Position numbers and translations under genes: made by a program. Source: a virus. From it: DNA of 64,000 bases. This document shows positions 3 through 54,752 of this stretch, one piece after another. Numbering within the stretch: position 1 is the first letter of the stretch; every line of letters starts with the position of its first letter. The notes below the pieces were generated by a model. That model was not told where the DNA came from. It ran no database searches and saw only the letters and a list, made by a program, of their open reading frames with translations. The stretch lies in the IMG/VR virus record IMGVR_UViG_3300038468_000170, positions 1 through 64,000 of that record; one strand, given 5' to 3'.

Positions 3-791
3 CGTCTCTACCTCGCCAAGCTCGCGGAGGACGGCTTGAGCGTCTCGACCGTGAACCAGTTCCTCTCCGCCATCGGGGAGGCGCACGAGGCCGAGGGGCA
101 CCTCTCGCCGCGGTTCCACCCCGCCGTCCAGCAAGTCTGGCGCGGCATCCGTCGGACGAAGAAGGTCCGCGCCGTCGGGATGAAGCCGCTCCTCGCCGAG
201 CACATCAAGAAGATGCTCGCGGCAACGCCGGACATGTCAATGCTCAACGCCCGGGACCGCGCGATCGTCGCCTTCGGCTGGGCTTGCGCGATGCGGCGCC
301 ACGAGATCGTGGACACGCACGTCGAGCACGTCACCTTCCACGACAAGGGCTTCACGGTGCTCATCGAGCGCGCGAAGGAGGACCAGGAGGGCAACGGCTT
401 CGAGAAGATGGTGCTCTTCGGGAAAAACGAGGCGACCTGCCCGGTCCGCATCCTGAAGCGCTGGCTCGCCGTCTCGCGCATCACGACGGGTCCCATCTTC
501 CGACCGGTGAACCGCTGGGGCCGCGTCGTCCAGTACGGCGAGCAGGAGCGCCTCTGGCCGCAATACGTCGAGAAAGTCGTGAAGCGCCTGATGACGAACG
601 CGGGCATCGACCACAAGGGCTACGGCGCGCACTCGCTCCGCGCCGGGTTCATCACCCAGGCCGCGCTCAACGGACACACCGAGAGCGAAATCATGCGGCA
701 CTCGGGCCACTCGAACACCAAGATCGTGCAGCGGTACATCCGCATCGCGAACCTCGACAAGAAGAACGCCACGGAGGACATGGGCTTGTGA
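3..791 (+). CDS. Cre-like tyrosine recombinase, 5'-truncated by window edge
   Basis: Frame open from position 3; catalytic residues R (AMRRHEI), K (RAKEDQ), HSLRAGF, GH and Y (VQRY) of the Cre-like integrase family. Confidence 0.92.
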   Translation, partial: RLYLAKLAEDGLSVSTVNQFLSAIGEAHEAEGHLSPRFHPAVQQVWRGIRRTKKVRAVGMKPLLAEHIKKMLAATPDMSMLNARDRAIVAFGWACAMRRHEIVDTHVEHVTFHDKGFTVLIERAKEDQEGNGFEKMVLFGKNEATCPVRILKRWLAVSRITTGPIFRPVNRWGRVVQYGEQERLWPQYVEKVVKRLMTNAGIDHKGYGAHSLRAGFITQAALNGHTESEIMRHSGHSNTKIVQRYIRIANLDKKNATEDMGL

Positions 792-4234: not shown

Positions 4235-4624
4235 ACCAAGGGTTTCTGGTCCCGATTGCTGGACCACTTCCGGCCAGCACAGCGCGTTCCTGCTCCGCCG
4301 CGCATTGGTCGTGTGGTCATACATTCGATCCGATGTGTCGGGTGTGGGAAGCCGCTTGAACACGGGCAGCTTGTCGTGACGGTAGACGGAGAGCTATCGA
4401 CTGGAGAACCGTTTCCCTTCACAGGCCATGCGACGTGCATGGTGCTTGTGCGCAAGTCAGACGGGACAGTCGAGGGCACGCCGCACAAGCACAGCATCTT
4501 GCTCACTGAATCTGAGTGGGAGCGCTGGAAGGCAACCGAGGCTCGTGGCGAGTCACCTGGCGGAGAGGTTCGGGTCATCGGCGTAAACGAGCACGCGCTT
4601 CCTCGATTGGTGAGCGGGCGTTGA
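4232..4624 (+). CDS. Hypothetical protein (CxxC...HxxC)
   Basis: TTG at +58 of copy 6. Confidence 0.65.
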   Translation: MTKGFWSRLLDHFRPAQRVPAPPRIGRVVIHSIRCVGCGKPLEHGQLVVTVDGELSTGEPFPFTGHATCMVLVRKSDGTVEGTPHKHSILLTESEWERWKATEARGESPGGEVRVIGVNEHALPRLVSGR

Positions 4625-4633
4625 AAGGACCAA

Positions 4634-4942
4634 ATGAACCCTGTGAAGCAGCACGACACCGCTACTCCCGCGGAACCTATCACGGCGGAAGCTATTCCTC
4701 TACCTAGCCACGAACGCGAGACTGATCGAGCGGAGCGAATCGCGAAAGAGTCTGGCGTCGAGAAATCCGTAGCTCTGGACATCGGCTACTTGCGTGATCT
4801 GGAAGCTCGAATCGTGGATGCCGCCCACCGCCATCCGGAGCTGCGGGACTTTCCAGTGTTCAATGCGTTGCTGGAGACGTTCCTCGATGCCCTGGAGAAT
4901 CAAGGTGGCGCAGAGCCACAGAAGACGGAGCCCGCACCGTGA
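4634..4942 (+). CDS. Hypothetical protein
   Basis: AAGGA RBS; N-terminus runs through element copy 7; stop inside copy 8. Confidence 0.65.
   Translation: MNPVKQHDTATPAEPITAEAIPLPSHERETDRAERIAKESGVEKSVALDIGYLRDLEARIVDAAHRHPELRDFPVFNALLETFLDALENQGGAEPQKTEPAP
4641..4701 (+). repeat. Cassette-boundary element copy 7 (degenerate)
   Basis: CTGTGAAGCA-N29-TCACGG. Confidence 0.7.
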
Positions 4943-4997
4943 AGCATCCCCGAATCAGAAGCCGTGCAGACCGGAGCACGAGAGAGGTGAGTCGTTG
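4937..4997 (+). repeat. Cassette-boundary element copy 8
   Basis: Near-identical to copies 1 and 3; TTG at +58. Confidence 0.9.
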
Positions 4998-8748: not shown

Positions 8749-9362
8749 TTCGAGTACCAGACGATCGGAGAGCGCCCCTTCAGGTCCGCGCCCGTCATGC
8801 TCATGTCGAACAGCATGCCGAAGAGCGTCTGGTCGAGGGGAGGGATTTGCCAGATCGCGAAGCCGCAGGTCGGGTCCGGGATGTCACGCGATCCGCCACG
8901 CCAGTAGAGGTGCACGTTCGGTAAGGCGTAGAGCTCCGCGCCCGATAAGAGCTGGCCTGCTCCCACGTAGGCGAGGGGCACGAAGCCTGCGCCCGAGATC
9001 GCGGCCGTGATAGCTTTGTCGTACGCGGTCGCATCCGCGTGACTCCCGTGCTGCTCTTCCAAGTCCACCATCAAATGCACGCCGGTAGGGACGCCGAGCG
9101 CCGTCGCGCGCTCGAGGATGTGCGTCGCGCGCGTGTGCCCGAACGCCTCCGAGATCGGACTTACGGGAGCCATGGAGAGCGGCAGAATCCCGAGTCCGGC
9201 GGTGAACAGGCCGTCGCGCTCGGCCGCGGACAGGTTCTCGATATACCTGCCGACGATGTCGACCCGAGCGCTTTTTAGCGCCAGTGCCGTCTCGATCGAG
9301 ATGGGCGCGAAGCTGTCGACCATCTTGGAGTAGAGCAAACACTGACGAGCAACCCCGGTCAT
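8745..9362 (-). CDS. DUF1906/Rv2525c-like glycoside hydrolase (putative peptidoglycan hydrolase)
   Basis: VGRY..NLSAAE....AGLGI, ALGVP.G..LMVDLE, AYVG, IWQ pattern; start at MTGVARQ. Confidence 0.7.
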   Translation of the reverse strand: MTGVARQCLLYSKMVDSFAPISIETALALKSARVDIVGRYIENLSAAERDGLFTAGLGILPLSMAPVSPISEAFGHTRATHILERATALGVPTGVHLMVDLEEQHGSHADATAYDKAITAAISGAGFVPLAYVGAGQLLSGAELYALPNVHLYWRGGSRDIPDPTCGFAIWQIPPLDQTLFGMLFDMSMTGADLKGRSPIVWYSN

Positions 9363-9371
9363 GGCTCGAGT

Positions 9372-9788
9372 ATGGTAGCATGGGTCATGCTCCAAACGGG
9401 ACTCGACTTCGCTCCTGGAACGACCGATGAATGCAAGCGGTTGATCGGGCGGCTCTTTTCGCCTACTGACATCTTTGCCGCGTACCGAGAAGGACGAGCC
9501 GCCTTCAGTACAGGAGACCTCGTCCTGCTTGCCTCGGAGCACGACCCGAGCGGCTTCAAGGTGCAGCCCCGCGTCGCTTACCTGAAAGATCTCAAGGACG
9601 CTCTCGGGCACAATGCGGCAAAGACGTTGCCAGTGCTTACGATTTCGCAGAAGACGGCCCACGCGGTGATGCGCCTTCCGGGCGATTCGGACGCCATGTG
9701 GCTCGTCATTGCACGCGGCAAAGACATGCCGGTCATGTGTGTCCTCTACGCGACCCCGTACGCTACCGGCTACAGCGCGGTAAATTAG
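9372..9788 (+). CDS. Hypothetical protein
   Basis: ORF with protein-like composition. Confidence 0.6.
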   Translation: MVAWVMLQTGLDFAPGTTDECKRLIGRLFSPTDIFAAYREGRAAFSTGDLVLLASEHDPSGFKVQPRVAYLKDLKDALGHNAAKTLPVLTISQKTAHAVMRLPGDSDAMWLVIARGKDMPVMCVLYATPYATGYSAVN

Positions 9789-12752: not shown

Positions 12753-13113
12753 GAACAACCAAATCATCGGTCGGATCGTCATCAGGCGCGCGTTCTCGTC
12801 GATCGTTCGCCCCGACCAGACGAAGGACATCACCAAGTTCATTTTGGTCGATGCGGTCGGTAGCGGCGCCGCAGCCAAAGGTGTCAAGATCGGCGACGTC
12901 ATCGTTCCAATGGCGATCGGGAAAATCATGCTGGACGACGGATTCCGACCGTCCCTCGAAGAGGAGAACGTCGGATTTTTCGTTCGGGACGTGAGCCCGA
13001 GCGATCTCCTGATCCAGACGGACAACGGCCTCGAGTACGTCCCCTTCGACTCCGAGAAGGCGGCGAAGTCGCTCGGCGCGGTCGTGAAGGAAGCCGAATC
13101 CGAGGCGGCATGA
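12736..13113 (+). CDS. GroES-like co-chaperonin
   Basis: MKLEPRNNQIIGR...IVRPD...VDAVGSG...VKIGDVIV matches the GroES pattern. Confidence 0.6.
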   Translation: MKLEPRNNQIIGRIVIRRAFSSIVRPDQTKDITKFILVDAVGSGAAAKGVKIGDVIVPMAIGKIMLDDGFRPSLEEENVGFFVRDVSPSDLLIQTDNGLEYVPFDSEKAAKSLGAVVKEAESEAA

Positions 13114-44345: not shown

Positions 44346-44552
44346 ATGGAGAGAATCTATCTACATGCGCGTCCGGTGCTCGGTTTCTCGCTTGGAGCAG
44401 ATGATTCAAGTCCGATGGATCTGGTGCGTTGCTCCGACGGCAGCGTTCATCGCGCCGGGCAATGCCCGATGAGTACCGGCGCGAAAGTCGCGATCGGCGG
44501 CGGAATTGTCGCCGCAACAAGTCTGGTGATCTGGTTGGTGTCTCGTGGCTGA
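44346..44552 (+). CDS. Small tail-anchored protein
   Basis: AAGGAG RBS; C-terminal TM. Confidence 0.6.
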   Translation: MERIYLHARPVLGFSLGADDSSPMDLVRCSDGSVHRAGQCPMSTGAKVAIGGGIVAATSLVIWLVSRG

Positions 44553-45159
44553 CCTAGGTGGTTCTTCGAACGCAGCCATTGCGTTCGATTTCCTCGTAAG
44601 CAAGGGACTCAGTTGCGAGCAAGCGGCTGCGGTCGTCGGAAACCTGCAAGTAGAATCCTATCTCAATCCCAAAAACGACGTCCCGGATCCAAAGAAAAAC
44701 GATCCTTCGGCACGCGGACGAGGGATCGCATCTTGGGATCCAACCCGTTGGCAAAACTTGCTTACGTTCGCGGCCGGGAGAGATCCGCTCTCGCTTGGAG
44801 TGCAGCTCGAGTTTTTGTGGCACGAGCTCCCTTCCAACGGACTGGCGCAGCTTGCCTCAACAACTCGCCTGGAAGATGCGGTAGTAGTCTTTCAAAATCT
44901 CTTCGAACGCCCGCGCGTGGCGCACACCGACAAACGCATCGCGGCAGCACAAGCCGCGCTCTATTACTGCCAGACCATCATCGTACCGAAAAAGAGCACC
45001 TCGATCTGGGTCGCAGCAGGCGCACTCGCTCTCGGCGCTCTCGCCGCAATCGGGATCTACAAGGCGAAGAAACGGCCTCCTGCCTACGAAATCGAGCGGT
45101 TCGATCGCTATCCTCCACCAGACCGATGGGAACCCGAACCGGATCGGTGGGAACCGTGA
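44545..45159 (+). CDS. Phage tail-type lysozyme (Phage_lysozyme2-like) with C-terminal TM anchor
   Basis: QAAAVVGNLQVES.LNP...GIASW...QLEFLWHEL...FERP. Confidence 0.85.
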   Translation: MADLGGSSNAAIAFDFLVSKGLSCEQAAAVVGNLQVESYLNPKNDVPDPKKNDPSARGRGIASWDPTRWQNLLTFAAGRDPLSLGVQLEFLWHELPSNGLAQLASTTRLEDAVVVFQNLFERPRVAHTDKRIAAAQAALYYCQTIIVPKKSTSIWVAAGALALGALAAIGIYKAKKRPPAYEIERFDRYPPPDRWEPEPDRWEP

Positions 45160-47226: not shown

Positions 47227-49466
47227 CCCAAGCTCACGGAACGTTCCGATATCTCGAGCACATCTTCGGCGTCGGTGACGCGAGCTCGAACCTCATCGCT
47301 GCGGCGCTCAAGGCGAGCATGCCGAAGCAAGATCTATCGACGCCTCCGCCTGGCGCAAAGGTCTGGCCGGCGGCCGACTGGCAGAGCGGCGCAGCTCAGA
47401 AAAAGGGCGCGAAGATCGGCGACTACATTGACTGGGGGCCGAATCACACCGTGCTCACCCCATTGCCAGGCGGCGGCTACGCGAACGTACCCACGCCTCG
47501 CTACGCGCTCATCACGCCGCATCAAGAAGGGATCTTCGACAAAGTAGGTAGCACCATCGAAGGGGTCGGCCGTGCAGTAGGAAACGCCGTGACTTCGGCC
47601 GGACAAGCCGCCGGACAAGCCGCTGGCACCGTTGCGAAGATCGCCGGTAGCGCCGCGCAGGAGACACAGAAGGCCCTCACGTCAGGCGCGAAGTTCGTCG
47701 CGAAAGCCGGCGGCGACGTCGGCAAGTTCGTTGCGGAACAAGCACAGAACTTCGCAAAGGACCCGATTGGACAGCTCACGAAGGTCGCGACGACCGGAGG
47801 TCTTAGTCTCGTCGGCGTGCATCCCGAAGAAATCCTGAACAAGGCTGGCATCCCCTCGCCCGATCAAATCCTGCAACACCTCGGCCTGCCGCCGACCTCG
47901 GCGATCGTCCACGAGGTCTACACGGACGTCACACAGCCTCAGGTACTCCTGCAAAAGATCCCTGGGATCGGAAAGCTCGCGAAGTTCATTCCTGCGATGC
48001 CGGATCCCACGCAGATCGCCGGTAACCTCGTCAATTCCGCACTCTCGGGCGACATCCAGGCGGTCAAGACGCAAGCGCTCGAAGTCGGGCACCAGATCGC
48101 CGACGCTATCACGATGGTGCCGGGCGTCGGCAACGCCATCGGGGCGCCGCTCGCCGCAGCGATCGAGCTCATCGAGACCGGCAGCGCCCTCAAGGCAGCA
48201 CTCGAACTCCTGCTCTCGCAAGTGCCCGGCATCCCGCCGCCGGTCCGCGACATCCTCCGCGCAACGCTCGATGGCATCGCCGACATCATCGAACAGGAGA
48301 AGGCCGTCACCGACGTCCTCATCGCTCAGTTCAAACAGGGCGTTCTCGATCAAGTGAAGAAAACGGGAGTCCCTGACGAGGTCTCCGGACTCGTCAACAA
48401 CATACTCGACGGCGCCGTGCAGGTGATCCTCCACCACAAGCCGCTCGACCGCGCTGCACTCGATCTTGCCGAAACGGGGATCAAGAAAGCCGTGAGCAAG
48501 CTCGGCGCGACTCCCGAGGTGCAGCAAGCACAGAAAGCGCTCGCGGATCTGAAGAACGTCTACAAGGGAATCGACACTATCCACGCGCTCACGCAGGGGA
48601 TCGTCCAGCTCGAGAAGCAGGACGCTCAGAAGAAAGACCCCGTCGTCCAGAAGAAGATTGCCGACATCAAAGCGGCCATCGAGGGGCAGAGGCTCCTTAC
48701 GCAGGCCGCCGCCAAGCAAGCCAAAAGCAAGCCCCCTGCGTTGCGCTCTGCGGCGCCTTCGAAGGTGCCCCCGGCGCTGCGGTCTGCCGCACCTGCCCCG
48801 CCCGCCGTCCCGACGCTCCCTGTGCCCCCGCCGGCCCCTCAAGCGTCGACAGGGCCGACCTACGGCCCCTATCCTCCCATGAAGCCCGGCGTCCACGGGC
48901 TTGGCGCGAGCGACGCCTGGCGTTGGTTCGCGCTCTTCTCGAACGGGGCGCTCATCGCCGAACAGGGCCCCCTGTGGCTTTCCGACACCGACGCCGAACG
49001 CACCGCGGCAGATTGGCTGGAAGCGTCTCAAGGCAGGGGCTACATCGGCACCGTGTCGCGGTGGGACTGGGATGGCAAGAGCTGGCGGCAAGCGTCCGGT
49101 GCACTCAGCGCTCCGCCGCCGCACCCACACGGCGGTGGAGGCCATCACGGAGGAGGAGGCCACCATGGCGGTGGCGGACATGGCGGAGCCCGTGTCTTCC
49201 GCGGGGGCAGAGCGATCCCCGGATGGTGGGGGCCGTGGTGGGGCACCCCCTGGTCCCCCGAAGTCGTCACGACGACCGAGACCTGCCAGACCTGGGGCGA
49301 CCCCATCGAGATGCCGCCCGCGATGCAGAGGGCGGCACGCGCGGCGCTCGGCGCCTCGAAAGGAAACCCGACGGCGGTACGAGGCCCGGACAACGTCCTC
49401 TACTTGTTCGCGTTCGAGGGCAACGACGTAACGGCGCGGCCCTGCGCGGCTGTAGCGACTTCCTGA
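47223..49466 (+). CDS. Large helical putative virion protein with His/Gly repeat
   Basis: Ala/Gly amphipathic helices, Pro-rich linker, HGGGGH repeats. Confidence 0.65.
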   Translation: MTQAHGTFRYLEHIFGVGDASSNLIAAALKASMPKQDLSTPPPGAKVWPAADWQSGAAQKKGAKIGDYIDWGPNHTVLTPLPGGGYANVPTPRYALITPHQEGIFDKVGSTIEGVGRAVGNAVTSAGQAAGQAAGTVAKIAGSAAQETQKALTSGAKFVAKAGGDVGKFVAEQAQNFAKDPIGQLTKVATTGGLSLVGVHPEEILNKAGIPSPDQILQHLGLPPTSAIVHEVYTDVTQPQVLLQKIPGIGKLAKFIPAMPDPTQIAGNLVNSALSGDIQAVKTQALEVGHQIADAITMVPGVGNAIGAPLAAAIELIETGSALKAALELLLSQVPGIPPPVRDILRATLDGIADIIEQEKAVTDVLIAQFKQGVLDQVKKTGVPDEVSGLVNNILDGAVQVILHHKPLDRAALDLAETGIKKAVSKLGATPEVQQAQKALADLKNVYKGIDTIHALTQGIVQLEKQDAQKKDPVVQKKIADIKAAIEGQRLLTQAAAKQAKSKPPALRSAAPSKVPPALRSAAPAPPAVPTLPVPPPAPQASTGPTYGPYPPMKPGVHGLGASDAWRWFALFSNGALIAEQGPLWLSDTDAERTAADWLEASQGRGYIGTVSRWDWDGKSWRQASGALSAPPPHPHGGGGHHGGGGHHGGGGHGGARVFRGGRAIPGWWGPWWGTPWSPEVVTTTETCQTWGDPIEMPPAMQRAARAALGASKGNPTAVRGPDNVLYLFAFEGNDVTARPCAAVATS

Positions 49467-49608
49467 CGAGGGCGCTCCATGGTGCGGAGCTCTACGGTGC
49501 AGCCGTCGCAATAGCCGCTGTAGGGGCGCGCGCTGTCGAAGTACCGCAACCGGTGGCAGCGCCGGCAGATCGATCGCCTTTTCGCCATCGGTCCGCTATC
49601 CTATCCCC

Positions 49609-49812
49609 ATGGCCAGGAAGAGCAAACACCACGCGCCCGGATGGCTCCCGTTCGCGTTGGCAGCGTCGGCCGTGACGGCGCTCGTTGCCGGGGCGCGCGC
49701 CGGCTGGAAGCTCTCTGGCGAGGCAAAGGCTCCGGCACCAGCATCGCCCTCGAGCACGCAGAAGGCGGGCGTCTTGCAAGACTGGGCGAGCGGCGTCGTC
49801 TATCGGGCCTGA
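49609..49812 (+). CDS. Small membrane protein
   Basis: Basic N-terminus plus TM helix. Confidence 0.55.
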   Translation: MARKSKHHAPGWLPFALAASAVTALVAGARAGWKLSGEAKAPAPASPSSTQKAGVLQDWASGVVYRA

Positions 49813-49816
49813 AAGC

Positions 49817-49845
49817 GAAACGGCCCGGGATCTCCGAGCCGTTTC
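49817..49845 (-). terminator. Intrinsic terminator downstream of tmRNA (possibly bidirectional)
   Basis: GAAACGGC...GCCGTTTC stem; minus strand continues TTTCGCTTTC. Confidence 0.6.
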
Positions 49846-49901
49846 AGGGGCGAAGGACTGTCGGGCCCTTCTGCCTCCACCACGCCCCAGGAAAGGGGCG
49901 G

Positions 49902-50273
49902 TGGAGCCGCCGGGTAGCGAGCCCGGGTCCGCGAGATGTCCAGACGATCTTCGTTCACGTGCCGTAGCCGATGAACGTCACCGGCACCGTTGCTCGCCCC
50001 GTATCGCGGGAGACAAGCGTTCCTCGTGGCCTTCATTACCGATCGGACGACAGCCTAGCGTTATCCCAAGTGGGCGCCTTCGTACGATCCGGGCTCGTGA
50101 GGTTCGTGCCGGCGAGCTACTCGAGCTCCTCGCTCGCCAACAGATCAGGCCGCCACGCGGACGGACGGATCGATTGCGTTGTCGTTCGCAACTGACGTTT
50201 GCCCTCGTGAAGTGAGCGGCATCCCTGGCACGCAGACCTTCCTTTCATTCCCACGTCGAATCAATTCGGCCCC
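49902..50273 (-). ncRNA. ssrA: tmRNA (transfer-messenger RNA), tag peptide ANDNAIDPSVRVAA
   Basis: 5' GGGGCCGAATTGATTCGAC; 3' GGACCCGGG-CTCGCTA-CCCGG-CGGCTCC-A; 7-bp acceptor stem with G3.U Ala identity pair; tag ORF 50189-50145 starts ANDN and ends AA*; ~372 nt. Confidence 0.93.
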
Positions 50274-50286
50274 GTAGGTAATTCGA

Positions 50287-50315
50287 AGCGTAGATCTAGC
50301 GAGTTCGTGATGCAA
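50287..50315 (-). promoter_or_regulatory. Sigma70-type promoter of tmRNA
   Basis: TTGCAT-17 bp-TACGCT ending 13 nt upstream of the mature 5' end. Confidence 0.65.
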
Positions 50316-50335
50316 GTCGCGCGCAAATCCGCAGC

Positions 50336-50629
50336 TCACAGCTTCGGTTTCTCGAAACGGACGTTGCCGTCATCCTCGCCCCAAACGCGCTTGTACGTGA
50401 ACAGCACTGCTTTCAGGCCCTCTTTCTTTTGCCGTTCGAAGCAGGCAGCGCAGAACACCAAGTAGTGCACCTCGCCGACGTCCGGTACGTTCAACGCCTC
50501 TGGGTAGTACAGCACGTCGTTCACGAGTATGTCGGGTCCGTGCTCGCAGCCGAGCATCACATCTCCGACTTTCGGCTGCACGTTGGACATCCGATGCTTT
50601 TGCAAAAACCCCCAGCTCATTTTTCCCAC
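50336..50629 (-). CDS. Hypothetical protein (CxH...CxxC)
   Basis: ORF in the minus-strand operon. Confidence 0.6.
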   Translation of the reverse strand: MGKMSWGFLQKHRMSNVQPKVGDVMLGCEHGPDILVNDVLYYPEALNVPDVGEVHYLVFCAACFERQKKEGLKAVLFTYKRVWGEDDGNVRFEKPKL

Positions 50630-50955
50630 GGTAGCCTCACCTTCGCCGCCCTCTCGCGCATCTCCGTCTGCCGTGCCGGCGACAGTTTCGAGAACAGGTT
50701 CGCCGGCTTCTCGTCTGGTCGCTCACGCTTTCGTAGATCGACCGCGTGCCAGATGTCCTTGATCTTCGCGCGCTGTTTCTCCGAAAACTCGAGCGTGCGG
50801 TCGTGTTGCTCACGGACGCTCTTGATGAACTCACGCTCCCAGTCCGAGAAGTAGACGCCGCCACGTTCGGGCGGAACGTCGACCAGCTCTTCGAGATCGG
50901 AGAGCTCCTTCAGCGCGGCCGTGTCTTTCCGGAGTTCGAGGATGGTGTCGGTCAC
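50617..50955 (-). CDS. Hypothetical phage protein
   Basis: SDWEREFIKSV...FSEKQ motif. Confidence 0.65.
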   Translation of the reverse strand: MTDTILELRKDTAALKELSDLEELVDVPPERGGVYFSDWEREFIKSVREQHDRTLEFSEKQRAKIKDIWHAVDLRKRERPDEKPANLFSKLSPARQTEMRERAAKVRLPWEK

Positions 50956-51995: not shown

Positions 51996-53087
51996 TTACC
52001 TCTCGTTCATCCGGGCCACGAGCCCCTTCACATTACGCATCTTCTCGAAGATCGAGTTCTTGTCTCGCTTGTCATATCGCGCGGTCGTCTCTGGCGACTC
52101 GTGCCCCATGAGTACTTGCACCAGACGAATATCGAACCCTTCGTCGAGTAGCCGTGTCGCGAACGTTCTCCGAAAATCGTGCGGCCCAGTGACTACCTGA
52201 AGACAGCGACATCCCTTGTTACACTTCTTGCGGTCGCCAAATGCGAGATGAGACCCGTCTCGCACGAGCGCCCAGAAGCTCCATGGCGAGAGTTGCCTCT
52301 CTGGAAGTTCTGGGGAACAGAACACGGAGTCGTGCATCGGAGCGAGATCCGTACGCTTCTCGAGCCACTCCTCCATGGCCTCCTGAACCTCGGCGATGAT
52401 GGGCACCTCGCGCTGCTTGTTGCCCTTGCCGATGATCGAGAGATTCTCCGGGCCAAAACCTTCGAGCGTCAGACGACCCACCTCTTCACGCCTGAGACCG
52501 GTACCGATCGACGTCGCCACGGTGGCATCCAGAAGCGCGCCCCGATACCCGCTTAGATCACGCGCGACCTCGCGCAGACGCTTTTCCTCCGTCAGTGTGA
52601 GTGCGCGCCCTCGCGGCACGCGAGACCCCGGGATCCGTTTCAGGACGCCCCTGGAATCGACGAGCTTGTACTGATCGCTCGTGATCATCTTCATGCCGTC
52701 CAACGTACGAATAAGTCCTCGCAAATGACTCAGCGTGAGGTTCGCTGTCCCGGGCGAGATCTCGCCGGCAAGTGTTGCGTCGTACAGCAATACTCGAATT
52801 CTGGTGGCGAGCGCGTAGTCGATGAGAGGCCACGGGAACAACTCCACGTTCCCGTTACCCCCCATCAGAAGCCGTGCGAGTCGCCGGAGCGCATCCAACG
52901 CCGTCTGCTTACTGCGAGGGGAGAGCTGCCCCCTGACGTACTCCCGAACGGCCTTTGCCCCGCGGTGAGCGGCTTCTTCTAGCGTCGACAGGTCCAAGCG
53001 CGCGTCGAAGCGTTCGACGAGTTCGATCGCCCCGCCGGGGGACAGGACGACGTCGTCGACCGGAGGTTTACCTACATCACCTGACAC
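51996..53087 (-). CDS. Tyrosine integrase/recombinase (XerC/D-like)
   Basis: GLRREE, GKGNKQR, HDFRRTFAT, MGHES...TARY. Confidence 0.93.
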   Translation of the reverse strand: MSGDVGKPPVDDVVLSPGGAIELVERFDARLDLSTLEEAAHRGAKAVREYVRGQLSPRSKQTALDALRRLARLLMGGNGNVELFPWPLIDYALATRIRVLLYDATLAGEISPGTANLTLSHLRGLIRTLDGMKMITSDQYKLVDSRGVLKRIPGSRVPRGRALTLTEEKRLREVARDLSGYRGALLDATVATSIGTGLRREEVGRLTLEGFGPENLSIIGKGNKQREVPIIAEVQEAMEEWLEKRTDLAPMHDSVFCSPELPERQLSPWSFWALVRDGSHLAFGDRKKCNKGCRCLQVVTGPHDFRRTFATRLLDEGFDIRLVQVLMGHESPETTARYDKRDKNSIFEKMRNVKGLVARMNER

Positions 53088-53288
53088 GGCCCAATCTTAG
53101 TGTGCAAAGGTTGGCGGGTCAAGAGCGATCTGAGGCTCCCCCACACCCGTCGCGTGCACATCGCGACGCGCGCCATAGCCGGTTCGTCGGAGGGGTTTCG
53201 CGGGGAAAATGAGAGGTCCGCACAGGGCGAACGAAAGGACCCGTCCCTCAAGCAGACGAAGACAGGGTCCTCGGTGTACTCTTTCCCC

Positions 53289-54752
53289 ATGCCGAATCAG
53301 ATCGTTCTCGCGTGGACCGTCGACACCACGAACACTCCTCTCGGCCCCGCCGGGGCAGCGACGGCCCTCGGAGCCGTACCACTCTACGTCGATACCACGA
53401 CCGACCCAGTTCTCGGTCAACTTTACGGGCTCACCGTCGCGAGCGACGTATCGGCGCCGTCCGGACCGACGCAAGCGACGCGCACGCTGACGCTCAACAT
53501 AGACTCCGGACACGTTCCGGCAGCACCGCCGCCGTTTCCGTGTCACCCGCGCACTTCGACGCCGCCCGTCTTGCCGTATCCGCTTCGCGCCACGAAAACG
53601 CTCCCGGGATCGTTCTTCGTTCAAACCGGGTCGATGGTCGTAGCCGTTTCACAGACTCAGATCCCGTCGCTCTCTATCGGCGACAACATTCAGTTCCTCT
53701 CCGAGGAAGGAGTCTTCTACGTGGTCGGGGCGGTTGGCTCGACGTCGATCGGAATCACGACGCCGTACACCGGCGTGTCGGCAAACACGAGCGCGTTCAA
53801 AGAGGTCGTTGCCCCCGCGAAGATCGCGGCAGTCTTCTCAACGTCGCCGCTCGACACCGCTGGAGTCGCGACCGTGCCAGCGATTCCGGTTGGCCCCGGT
53901 GCGCAATCAGTCACGCTGACCTACAAAGACTCGAACGGCGTCTCCAACACGCTCGTCATTCCGCTGACCGGTAGACGCCCAGCACTTATCGCGCTCCCGA
54001 CTGCTCCGGCCGCAGGCTTCGACATCGCCGAGATCGACAGCTTCACCGTCTCTGCTGCGGGTACTTTCGGAAGCAGCGTAGGACAGATCACGCTCGTTTC
54101 GCTCGAGAGCGCACTCCCGGCAATCCCGTCGAACGCAACTCCCACCGACTTCAAAGGGCCGCTCACCGACGAGGCACAGATGCTCATCGACCGAGCGCTC
54201 GTCTATTTGCCGCCGAGCTACTTCTCGCTCGCTGGGCAACAAGCAAGCACGCCGCAACTTGCTGGAGACTTCATCGTCACGACCGGCTCGACGAGCGTGC
54301 CTACGACGGTCGACCAGACCGGTGCACTCGCTCCAGGAGACATCATCCAGTTCGCTTCGCAACTCGACGTGTTCTACACCATCGCCACGGTGGCCCCGGG
54401 ACTCGTGAAGCTCACGACGCCGTACACCGGCATCGACGACAACTTCACCGGAACAAACAATGAAGGGACCAACAGCAACCGAGGGACCATGGGTAACCTC
54501 GGAGACAAGGTCACCAAGACGACGGGAGCGTTCCTCGTGAACCCGTCGCCGGCCGCTCCACCAAGCAACACCGAGCTCGCGGAGCCGCTCGGACAGTTCG
54601 TCGCGCTCGAGACGGCGGGACCCCCTCCGAATCCGCCGCTCGATCCGGCGACGGTGCCGGTGCCGACATTCCTCTCCGGACTCTTCACGCGAACGCTTCA
54701 GGTCGCGCTCGCGGGGGTGCCGGTCGTGCCGCAGACCATCACGTTCGTCTGA
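53289..54752 (+). CDS. Putative virion spike/fibre protein with a duplicated ~60-aa beta domain
   Basis: Two copies of F.V.TGS..V...Q...L..GD.IQF.S...VFY....V.......TTPYTG. Confidence 0.65.
   Translation: MPNQIVLAWTVDTTNTPLGPAGAATALGAVPLYVDTTTDPVLGQLYGLTVASDVSAPSGPTQATRTLTLNIDSGHVPAAPPPFPCHPRTSTPPVLPYPLRATKTLPGSFFVQTGSMVVAVSQTQIPSLSIGDNIQFLSEEGVFYVVGAVGSTSIGITTPYTGVSANTSAFKEVVAPAKIAAVFSTSPLDTAGVATVPAIPVGPGAQSVTLTYKDSNGVSNTLVIPLTGRRPALIALPTAPAAGFDIAEIDSFTVSAAGTFGSSVGQITLVSLESALPAIPSNATPTDFKGPLTDEAQMLIDRALVYLPPSYFSLAGQQASTPQLAGDFIVTTGSTSVPTTVDQTGALAPGDIIQFASQLDVFYTIATVAPGLVKLTTPYTGIDDNFTGTNNEGTNSNRGTMGNLGDKVTKTTGAFLVNPSPAAPPSNTELAEPLGQFVALETAGPPPNPPLDPATVPVPTFLSGLFTRTLQVALAGVPVVPQTITFV

Follow-up and report, generated by a model that had tools for sequence, protein, structure and literature searches.

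The window analysed here is a 64,000-nucleotide stretch of DNA, positions 1 to 64,000 of the IMG/VR record IMGVR_UViG_3300038468_000170. The whole record is 96,019 bp long, derives from an uncultured wetland virus and is rated complete by CheckV. Within the window, an apparent gap between viral genes holds a gene for a one-piece transfer-messenger RNA (tmRNA, the product of ssrA). We consider it probable, if well short of certain, that the virus carries a functional accessory tmRNA in a compact cassette of promoter, tmRNA, structured trailer and terminator, and that the ancestor of this gene came from a Polyangia-type (Myxococcota) host lineage and later evolved inside related large environmental viruses. 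Phage-encoded tmRNAs as such are already known. What is new is a lineage of them with a remodelled elbow, an unencoded CCA end, a trailer complementary to the acceptor strand, a private terminator and tags that do not end in LAA. The cassette moves among large environmental viruses, and the usual detector does not see it.

The gene and its parts are as follows.

49899–50273, minus strand: one-piece tmRNA gene (RF00023), 375 nt including the three CCA positions, which here read CCG

50267–50273, minus strand: 5′ strand of the acceptor stem, GGGGCCG, which pairs with 49903–49909 and includes the G3.U70 pair

49903–49909, minus strand: 3′ strand of the acceptor stem, CGGCUCC, followed by the discriminator A (49902) and CCG (49899–49901)

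50255–50266, minus strand: D-loop analogue AAUUGAUUCGAC, with a single G where the cellular relatives carry GG

49910–49926, minus strand: T arm, stem CCGGG/CCCGG with the 7-nt loop CUCGCUA at 49915–49921 (from reading the sequence and from RF00023)

50145–50189, minus strand: tag frame from the resume codon GCG to the stop UGA, ANDNAIDPSVRVAA* (from reading the sequence)

A preliminary description of this DNA had placed a complete tmRNA unit within 49817–50315. RF00023 bears this out with a match on the minus strand over the full model (positions 1–374; 50.4 bits, gathering score 47, E 6.8e-17), and this is the single RF00023 match in the whole 96,019-bp record. The GGGGCCG/CGGCUCC pairing, the G3.U pair, the discriminator A, the tag and the promoter hexamers that the description had named are all correct on direct reading. 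The tag frame opens on an alanine resume codon without any start codon and closes with hydrophobic-Ala-Ala and a stop of its own (codons GCG AAC GAC AAC GCA AUC GAU CCG UCC GUC CGC GUG GCG GCC UGA). The T-loop CUCGCUA departs from the canonical UUCRAnY with its U54-A58 pair.

The gene belongs to a small viral lineage. We scanned IMG/VR with the tag-frame start and the conserved stretch just inside the 5′ end, and found five further contigs with related tmRNAs: L166, L159, L160, L161 (identical to L163) and L168. Two of them are close to the window gene (L166 with 83% identity, L159 with 80%). L160, L161 and L163 come from the same virus group, because they share with this virus a gene for a 550-aa protein (58–59% identical) and/or ThyX (75–89%). 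The L160 tmRNA is well removed from the ends of its genome, which is 111 kb long and has terminal repeats; that of L168 lies inside a 194-kb contig. No conserved protein gene accompanies the tmRNA across these viruses. A linked partner protein that replaces SmpB was considered and dropped on this ground.

The members deviate from cellular tmRNAs in the same places. The D-loop analogue AAUUGAUUCGAC is common to the window, L166, L160 and L161, while L168 has AAAUAGAUUCGAC; both contain a single G. L159 alone keeps a canonical elbow. The T-loops of the other five read CUCGCUA, UUCGUAA, GUCGUUC, CUCGUAG and GGCAGUA, so that the U54-A58 pair is gone in five of six, while U55-C56-R57 is kept in four of these five and L168 retains only C56-R57. 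CCA is unencoded in five of the six genes (ends such as ACCG, ACGC and ACUC). The tags are 9–16 aa long and end in IAA, VAA or QAA, never in LAA. ARAGORN misses all six members. The T-loop is not the sole cause of this failure, since L159 is missed as well.

Several other searches bear on the extent of the lineage. A blastn comparison of the window gene with 50,697 phage records gave no match, and neither did a search of IMG/VR with the exact 31-nt 3′ end. Two matches to the 5′ motif in metagenome-assembled genomes (MAGs) of Polyangiaceae/Myxococcales, L169 and L170, are chance matches in coding sequence; L172–L174 were likewise discarded as chance matches. L175 holds a 5′ fragment only, at the end of the locus. 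Outside the lineage, the 427-kb contig L158 (IMGVR_UViG_3300028920_000001) carries a canonical tmRNA at 4608–4961 (106 bits, tag ANDNASLAIAA) that ARAGORN calls, together with a tRNA-SeC at 9317–9391. L158 may represent a giant phage, or else host DNA that was wrongly classified as viral.

The viral copies are under selection for structure and for the tag frame, because compensatory changes preserve their helices, and insertions and deletions leave their tags in frame. We aligned the six viral tmRNAs with six cellular ones from Polyangiaceae/Myxococcales (alignment A3). The consensus structure that RNAalifold predicts from it has the acceptor stem, helix 2 and the T arm, plus stems in the regions of the tag and of the pseudoknots. 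Both sides have changed in 42 of the 65 pairs. Paired cells amount to 93.5%, compared with 81.0% in shuffled alignments, and none of 500 shuffles is as high; slid controls are 38–45% paired. Covariation backs helix 2 and one stem per downstream pseudoknot region, in an analysis that does not model pseudoknots explicitly.

Individual helices show the same pattern. The T stem is 100% paired over all 12 sequences, and four of its five pairs covary, with every change in the viral rows (CCGGG/CCCGG, CCGGA/UCCGG, CCCGG/CCGGG, CGGGG/CCCCG). G3.U70 is present in 12 of 12 sequences, while pairs 2:71 and 4:69 next to it change on both sides (U2-A71 in L159, C4-G69 in L168). At the top of helix 2 the trio of window, L166 and L159 reads GCGUGCC/GGCACGU, GCGCGCC/GGCGCGU and GCGCGUC/GACGCGU. 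All six viral tags start with ANDNA, end in (I/V/Q)AA plus a stop, and differ in length by whole codons. In the closest trio the differences are +2 and −1 codons, and the position of the stop codon is unchanged. The resume context AGUU|GCG is kept across the alignment, and the viral copies diverge by 17–35%.

These observations speak against a decaying passenger, that is, a host ssrA acquired by imprecise excision that now drifts without function. Such decay would fit the low covariance score, the non-canonical T-loop, the missing CCA and the failure of ARAGORN, and it would fit a cassette that is dispensable at the strain level. Yet a drifting gene would not be expected to hold 93.5% of its pair cells paired, with many double changes, at 17–35% divergence. 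Nor would it keep G3.U70, the resume context and the tag frame together, or the promoter geometry and terminator described below. The deviations are also lineage-wide, not random. We therefore regard decay as scarcely credible.

The tmRNA gene is the centre of a larger conserved unit, whose other parts are the following.

50287–50315, minus strand: promoter-like TTGCAT-17-TACGCT (TTGCAT at 50315–50310, TACGCT at 50292–50287), 13 nt before the mature 5′ end

49873–49898, minus strand: 3′ trailer, a hairpin CCCC-UUUCCU-GGGG (predicted fold) and then GUGGUGGAG, complementary to CUCCAC(CA); found by comparison

49811–49845, minus strand: terminator-like hairpin GAAACGGCUCGG-AGAUC-CCGGGCCGUUUC of 12 bp (49817–49845), then the short U-rich stretch GCUUUC; found by comparison

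The promoter and terminator of the preliminary description survive in part. Both hexamers are there, matching the sigma-70 consensus at 6 of 12 positions, and a terminator-like hairpin follows the gene; a generic promoter and terminator scan reported neither. Comparison adds to this. The geometry TTGCnn-17-nAnnnT occurs in four of five cassettes and ends 10–13 nt ahead of the mature 5′ end (TTGCGT-17-TACTAT in L161, TTGCGC-17-CATCAT in L166, TTGCCA-17-GATACT in L159). The conserved spacing supports the candidate promoter as real despite its weak hexamers. The terminator-like hairpin is nearly identical in the window, L166, L159, L160 and L161. It has one copy in this genome, and in IMG/VR it is found solely behind these tmRNAs.

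The trailer is conserved in the same five viruses. Its hairpin stays paired with changing bases (CCCC/GGGG, CCGC/GCGG twice, ACCC/GGGU, CUCC/GGAG), and the motif (A/G)UGGUGGA(G) follows it in each. This motif is the exact complement of the universal 3′ end of tRNA-Ala and tmRNA, (C)UCCACCA. It is unchanged in L159 although the acceptor strand there reads CUACACC. Hence the motif may act in trans or at the DNA level and not only by pairing in cis.

Homology between the window and L166 and L159 spans exactly 50275 to 49812, and homology to L161 reaches up to 50319, thus including the promoter. In L160 and L161 the neighbours of the cassette are the 550-aa gene and thyX, one on each side; in this virus it is some 4.5 kb away from the equivalent site, beyond the integrase. 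The differing position implies that the unit moves.

Strains from the same kind of habitat show this unit coming and going. We compared contigs from four wetland metagenome runs (X3, X4, X5 and X7) to positions 49300–50800 and found one segment that is present or absent as a whole.

49815–50586, no strand: 772-bp present/absent segment comprising terminator, tmRNA, promoter and the larger part of an open reading frame (ORF) at 50336–50629

The X3 and X4 contigs contain the tmRNA. In the contigs of X5 (10,032 nt) and X7 (5,005 nt), position 49814 is joined to 50587 through 203 other bases, and this tmRNA-less strain is about 97% identical to the virus in the flanks. The left edge of homology between viruses coincides with the edge of this indel at 49814. 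Presence or absence between near-identical strains indicates that the cassette is traded as a unit. An integrase, P0001, that is 99% identical to the one of this virus is encoded on a 10,032-nt contig, the same size as the X5 contig. The tmRNA-less strain apparently carries the same integrase, and the coordinates of the X5 contig should span its gene. Two further integrases, P0003 and P0005 (79% identical), are on contigs of 93 kb and 91 kb.

Some smaller observations concern the same segment. The ORF at 50336–50629 (minus strand), just upstream of the tmRNA, is replaced as well in the tmRNA-less strain, with its first 14 codons kept. The homologue of this ORF in a related virus, L075 (9449–9694), stands elsewhere in the gene order; this suggests that small genes are shuffled as in a mosaic. 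A 4,038-nt contig of X3 matches only the 39-nt terminator stretch 49812–49850 and has unrelated flanks. The X4 tmRNA, compared over 49812–50230, is a variant that resembles L159 (U44C, C46U, G51A and U53C in RNA numbering). Several cassette variants and contexts thus coexist in one wetland.

The surroundings of the cassette are viral on both sides, as the preliminary description had stated. To the left lie a phage tail lysozyme domain protein (44545–45159), an SGNH esterase and a 747-aa protein. To the right follow four small ORFs, a tyrosine integrase, ThyX, a dCTP deaminase, a dNMP kinase, ParB and an SF1 helicase.

51996–53087, minus strand: neighbouring tyrosine integrase (PF00589 3.5e-24, phrog_1 2e-29), listed as context; any action on the tmRNA is hypothetical

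The proteins of this virus match few known phage protein families. L075 comes from an 85.6-kb viral genome that is complete, since it has direct terminal repeats, and its integrase is 57% identical to that of this virus. The L075 homologues of the ORF at 50617–50955 and of the 747-aa gene stand almost back to back, and the tmRNA is absent from the entire L075 record. Hence the tmRNA unit is an insert between convergent viral genes. Host chromosome on one flank is ruled out, as both flanks are syntenic with L075. The description had also noted that the window lacks smpB. A search for PF01668 extended to the whole 96-kb record agrees with it.

The 550-aa protein (53100–54752, plus strand) adjoins the integrase and is kept in all relatives found, with identities of 51% in L075, 45% in L076, 59% in L160 and 58% in L161. 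It has no Pfam or PHROG match. In L160 and L161 its gene adjoins the tmRNA.

The closest cellular relatives point to the origin of the gene. We scanned one genome per prokaryote species with the T stem and the 3′ acceptor strand, leaving the T-loop free, and obtained 73 loci. Among these cellular loci, similarity extends past the 3′ end only in MAGs of Polyangiaceae/Myxococcales. The ssrA genes of these relatives (L072, L017, L026, L045, L065 and L061) have the acceptor stem GGGGCCG/CGGCUCC, the T stem, the resume context and the ANDNA tag start in common with the window. They are about 80% identical to it across the last 60–70 nt, and three of them show shorter extra matches in the 5′ part or the tag region. 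Unlike the window gene, they encode CCA and carry GG in the D-loop analogue; their T-loop is UUCGAUU, their tags are 10 aa long and end in LAA, and they score 113–128 bits with RF00023 where the window gene scores 50.4. L072, L017 and L045, the three checked downstream, are without the viral trailer or terminator. The T-loop is canonical, TTC[AG]A.., in 73 of 73 cellular loci, and that of the window differs from all of them. The extended 5′ motif with the D-loop analogue, CCGAATTGATTCGACGTGGGAA, was not found with up to two mismatches in 401 sampled Myxococcota genomes.

Judged from RNA similarity alone, the host of the virus is probably a member of Polyangia (Myxococcota), because only the Polyangiaceae/Myxococcales tmRNAs resemble the window gene beyond the 3′ end. 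The tag had been expected to help identify the host, and it does help: the nearest cellular tmRNAs, all from this group, have tags of the form ANDNAxxLAA (ANDNAELLAA, ANDNAMILAA, ANDNAQLLAA, ANDNAITLAA and ANDNAVALAA).

The ssrA gene is a common integration target (Williams 2002, 2003), and the integrase lies 1.7 kb from the tmRNA on the same strand. The preliminary description proposed that the tmRNA may serve as attP, the attachment site of the phage, for this integrase. In this scenario the integrase at 51996–53087 recombines the viral ssrA, or the inverted TCCACCA core in the trailer, with the 3′ end of the host ssrA, so that the tmRNA gene stays intact after integration. Over its last 15 nt, CCCGGCGGCUCCACC, the viral gene is indeed identical to the Polyangiaceae/Myxococcales ssrA. 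The complement of UCCACCA is in the trailer of all five cassettes, even in L159 with its altered acceptor strand, as a DNA site that matches the host might be, and this keeps the proposal alive at a low level.

The comparison with relatives gives it no support. A near-identical strain that apparently has the same integrase is without the tmRNA. L075 and L076 have integrases 57% and 49% identical to this one; their records contain no tmRNA anywhere, and no tRNA gene lies within 6 kb of these integrases. The cassette is away from this integrase in L160 and L161, so the linkage is not kept, and the 194-kb record of L168 has the tmRNA without any PF00589 match. Identity to the Polyangiaceae/Myxococcales ssrA is confined to two blocks, the last 15 nt and 9 nt ahead of the T-loop, and the T-loop between them differs; it mismatches all 73 retrieved cellular tmRNA ends. 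We find no close homologue of the integrase in 151 sampled Polyangia genomes, and thus see no integrated form. Finally, a 3′ fragment would suffice for an attP, which has no need of a conserved tag frame or of pseudoknots. An attachment site, in whole or in part, is therefore very unlikely.

Protein searches added little here. Neither the 747-aa protein nor the integrase, each searched singly against IMG/VR, brought up any relatives. Generic integrases dominated a metagenome scan that used the integrase alignment, and L078 was all that it contributed. The integrase search also led to L077, an unrelated 31-kb viral contig with a near-threshold match to sRNA-Xcc1 at 4405–4490 (51.9 bits, cut-off 53).

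How would a functional tmRNA work in this virus? During infection, transcription of the cassette would start at its own promoter, a weak one of the sigma-70 type. The precursor would be trimmed by RNase P and 3′ nucleases of the host, and the host CCA-adding enzyme would complete its end; the terminal A at least must be added, because the gene reads ACCG. Host alanyl-tRNA synthetase (AlaRS) would then charge the RNA with alanine via G3.U70. Together with host SmpB and EF-Tu, it would enter stalled ribosomes and add ANDNAIDPSVRVAA to the unfinished protein. The SmpB would have to come from the host, since the 96-kb genome has no PF01668 match. That the RNA is expressed and charged, works with SmpB, tags proteins and benefits the virus is inferred from sequence. 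That the tmRNA supports translation under host RNase defences, as the preliminary description had it, is speculation.

The viral tmRNA probably differs from that of the host in processing, modification, recognition or the fate of the tagged proteins, because the lineage has changed the corner of D-loop and T-loop, the length and C-terminal residues of the tag, and the 3′ end.

A number of points weigh against a functional tmRNA. Of the two scans that had been suggested as a check, RF00023 finds the gene with a score only 3 bits over the gathering score, and ARAGORN makes no tmRNA call on the window or on the whole genome. The CCA is not encoded, the 3′ end being ACCG. Changes affect U54 and A58 in the T-loop and one G of the two in the D-loop, and PMC3968760 reports, after Barends et al. 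2002, that in E. coli SmpB binding and function depend on D-loop/T-loop interactions. In the window, L166 and L159, the pseudoknot 1 region can be drawn only as a hairpin and not as a convincing pseudoknot, whereas pseudoknot 1 is clear in L160 and L161. No smpB was found in the whole record. The cassette is dispensable, as a near-identical strain, L075 and L076 do without it. The sequencing runs listed with this sequence are wetland DNA only and include no RNA run.

Some of these points would be explained if the RNA were a decoy or inhibitor. It would be made and perhaps charged, and its altered elbow would make it a poor substrate for rescue. It would then tie up SmpB, AlaRS or ribosomal A sites of the host, whose trans-translation would be damped. 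Five of the six viral members have changes in both the D-loop analogue and the T-loop, and the search for a viral SmpB was negative. The main argument is that these loops matter for SmpB binding in E. coli, as reported in PMC3968760. A precedent exists in the tag-less form encoded by mycobacteriophage DS6A, which inhibits the cell's own tmRNA when it is expressed in E. coli (PMC11915505). A decoy, however, needs no tag. Yet in six of six viruses the frame is open across whole-codon insertions and deletions, starts with ANDNA and has what we count as a hydrophobic-Ala-Ala end. Helix 2 and the helices of the pseudoknot regions covary, and L159 retains a canonical elbow. We consider a decoy distinctly unlikely, and the functional accessory tmRNA remains the reading that we prefer.

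One extension of that reading is offered tentatively, as we think it unlikely to be right. Here the tmRNA is re-engineered, with the corner, the 3′ end and the tag changed on purpose, such that it escapes an agent that acts on tRNA-shaped RNAs of the host. Candidate agents would be a defence nuclease, a modification enzyme or cell-cycle turnover. The fate of the rescued proteins would differ from that set by the LAA degron, and the trailer would be a new regulatory or processing element. Its UGGUGGA(G) could mask the acceptor strand of the precursor or pair in trans with the ends of uncharged host tmRNA or tRNA-Ala.

Cluster C mycobacteriophages carry one-piece tmRNAs. The window gene resembles such phage tmRNAs in being a full-length ssrA in a viral genome, with its own expression signals, a dependence on host factors and a tag frame unlike that of the host. 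It differs from them in its remodelled elbow, the lack of an encoded CCA, the acceptor-complementary trailer and its invisibility to ARAGORN. Huge phages often carry tmRNA together with SmpB (PMC7162821), which this virus does not bring. The DS6A mini-tmRNA (“TLD only”, cited in PMC11915505) is likewise virus-borne and derived from tmRNA, and its tRNA-like part may compete with the host in the same way. It has no tag frame and no pseudoknots, whereas the window gene has a full mRNA-like domain under selection.

The two-piece tmRNA of the OM43 phage Melnitz and of pelagimyophages (PMC9004378) is also accessory, host-derived and present in some members of the group. It is circularly permuted, sits in T4-like marine myophages and in some cases comes with a glutamine riboswitch. 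The window tmRNA, in contrast, is of the standard one-piece type and belongs to soil or wetland viruses. In systems with attP in the ssrA 3′ end (lambdoid prophages, CP4-57, the Dehalococcoides ssrA islands; PMC3146451), ssrA sequence likewise lies near an integrase in a mobile element. Those systems hold only a short 3′ fragment that is identical to the host gene. The window holds a whole gene whose T-loop has diverged from the cellular genes and which is unlinked to the integrase across relatives.

The failure of ARAGORN has consequences for surveys. An ARAGORN survey found tmRNA genes in 402 of 18,146 phage genomes, about 2.3% (PMC9004378), and phage tmRNA surveys in general rest on this program (PMC9004378, PMC7162821). 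The candidates of the curated tmRNA database are chosen mainly from ARAGORN and BLASTN matches, and CCA is not encoded in every tmRNA gene (PMC11915505). The number of viral ribosome-rescue genes is probably underestimated, because ARAGORN misses six of six members of this lineage. As a natural experiment, the lineage also shows what can vary in the tRNA-like corner and in the degradation tag while the RNA remains under selection. It thus bears on how tmRNA is recognised by SmpB, AlaRS, the CCA-adding enzyme and Clp proteases. In addition, the gene gives a lead to the host (Polyangia, Myxococcota) for large uncultured viruses with very few recognisable genes.

Two features elsewhere in the genome complete the description. 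The sole tRNA gene of the 96-kb genome is a tRNA-Val (anticodon CAC) at 12947–13025 on the minus strand. At the contig start a second tyrosine recombinase, a shorter one, is encoded (36–791, plus strand; phrog_1 8e-20), and a homologue with 32% identity is found 2.6 kb from the tmRNA of L160.

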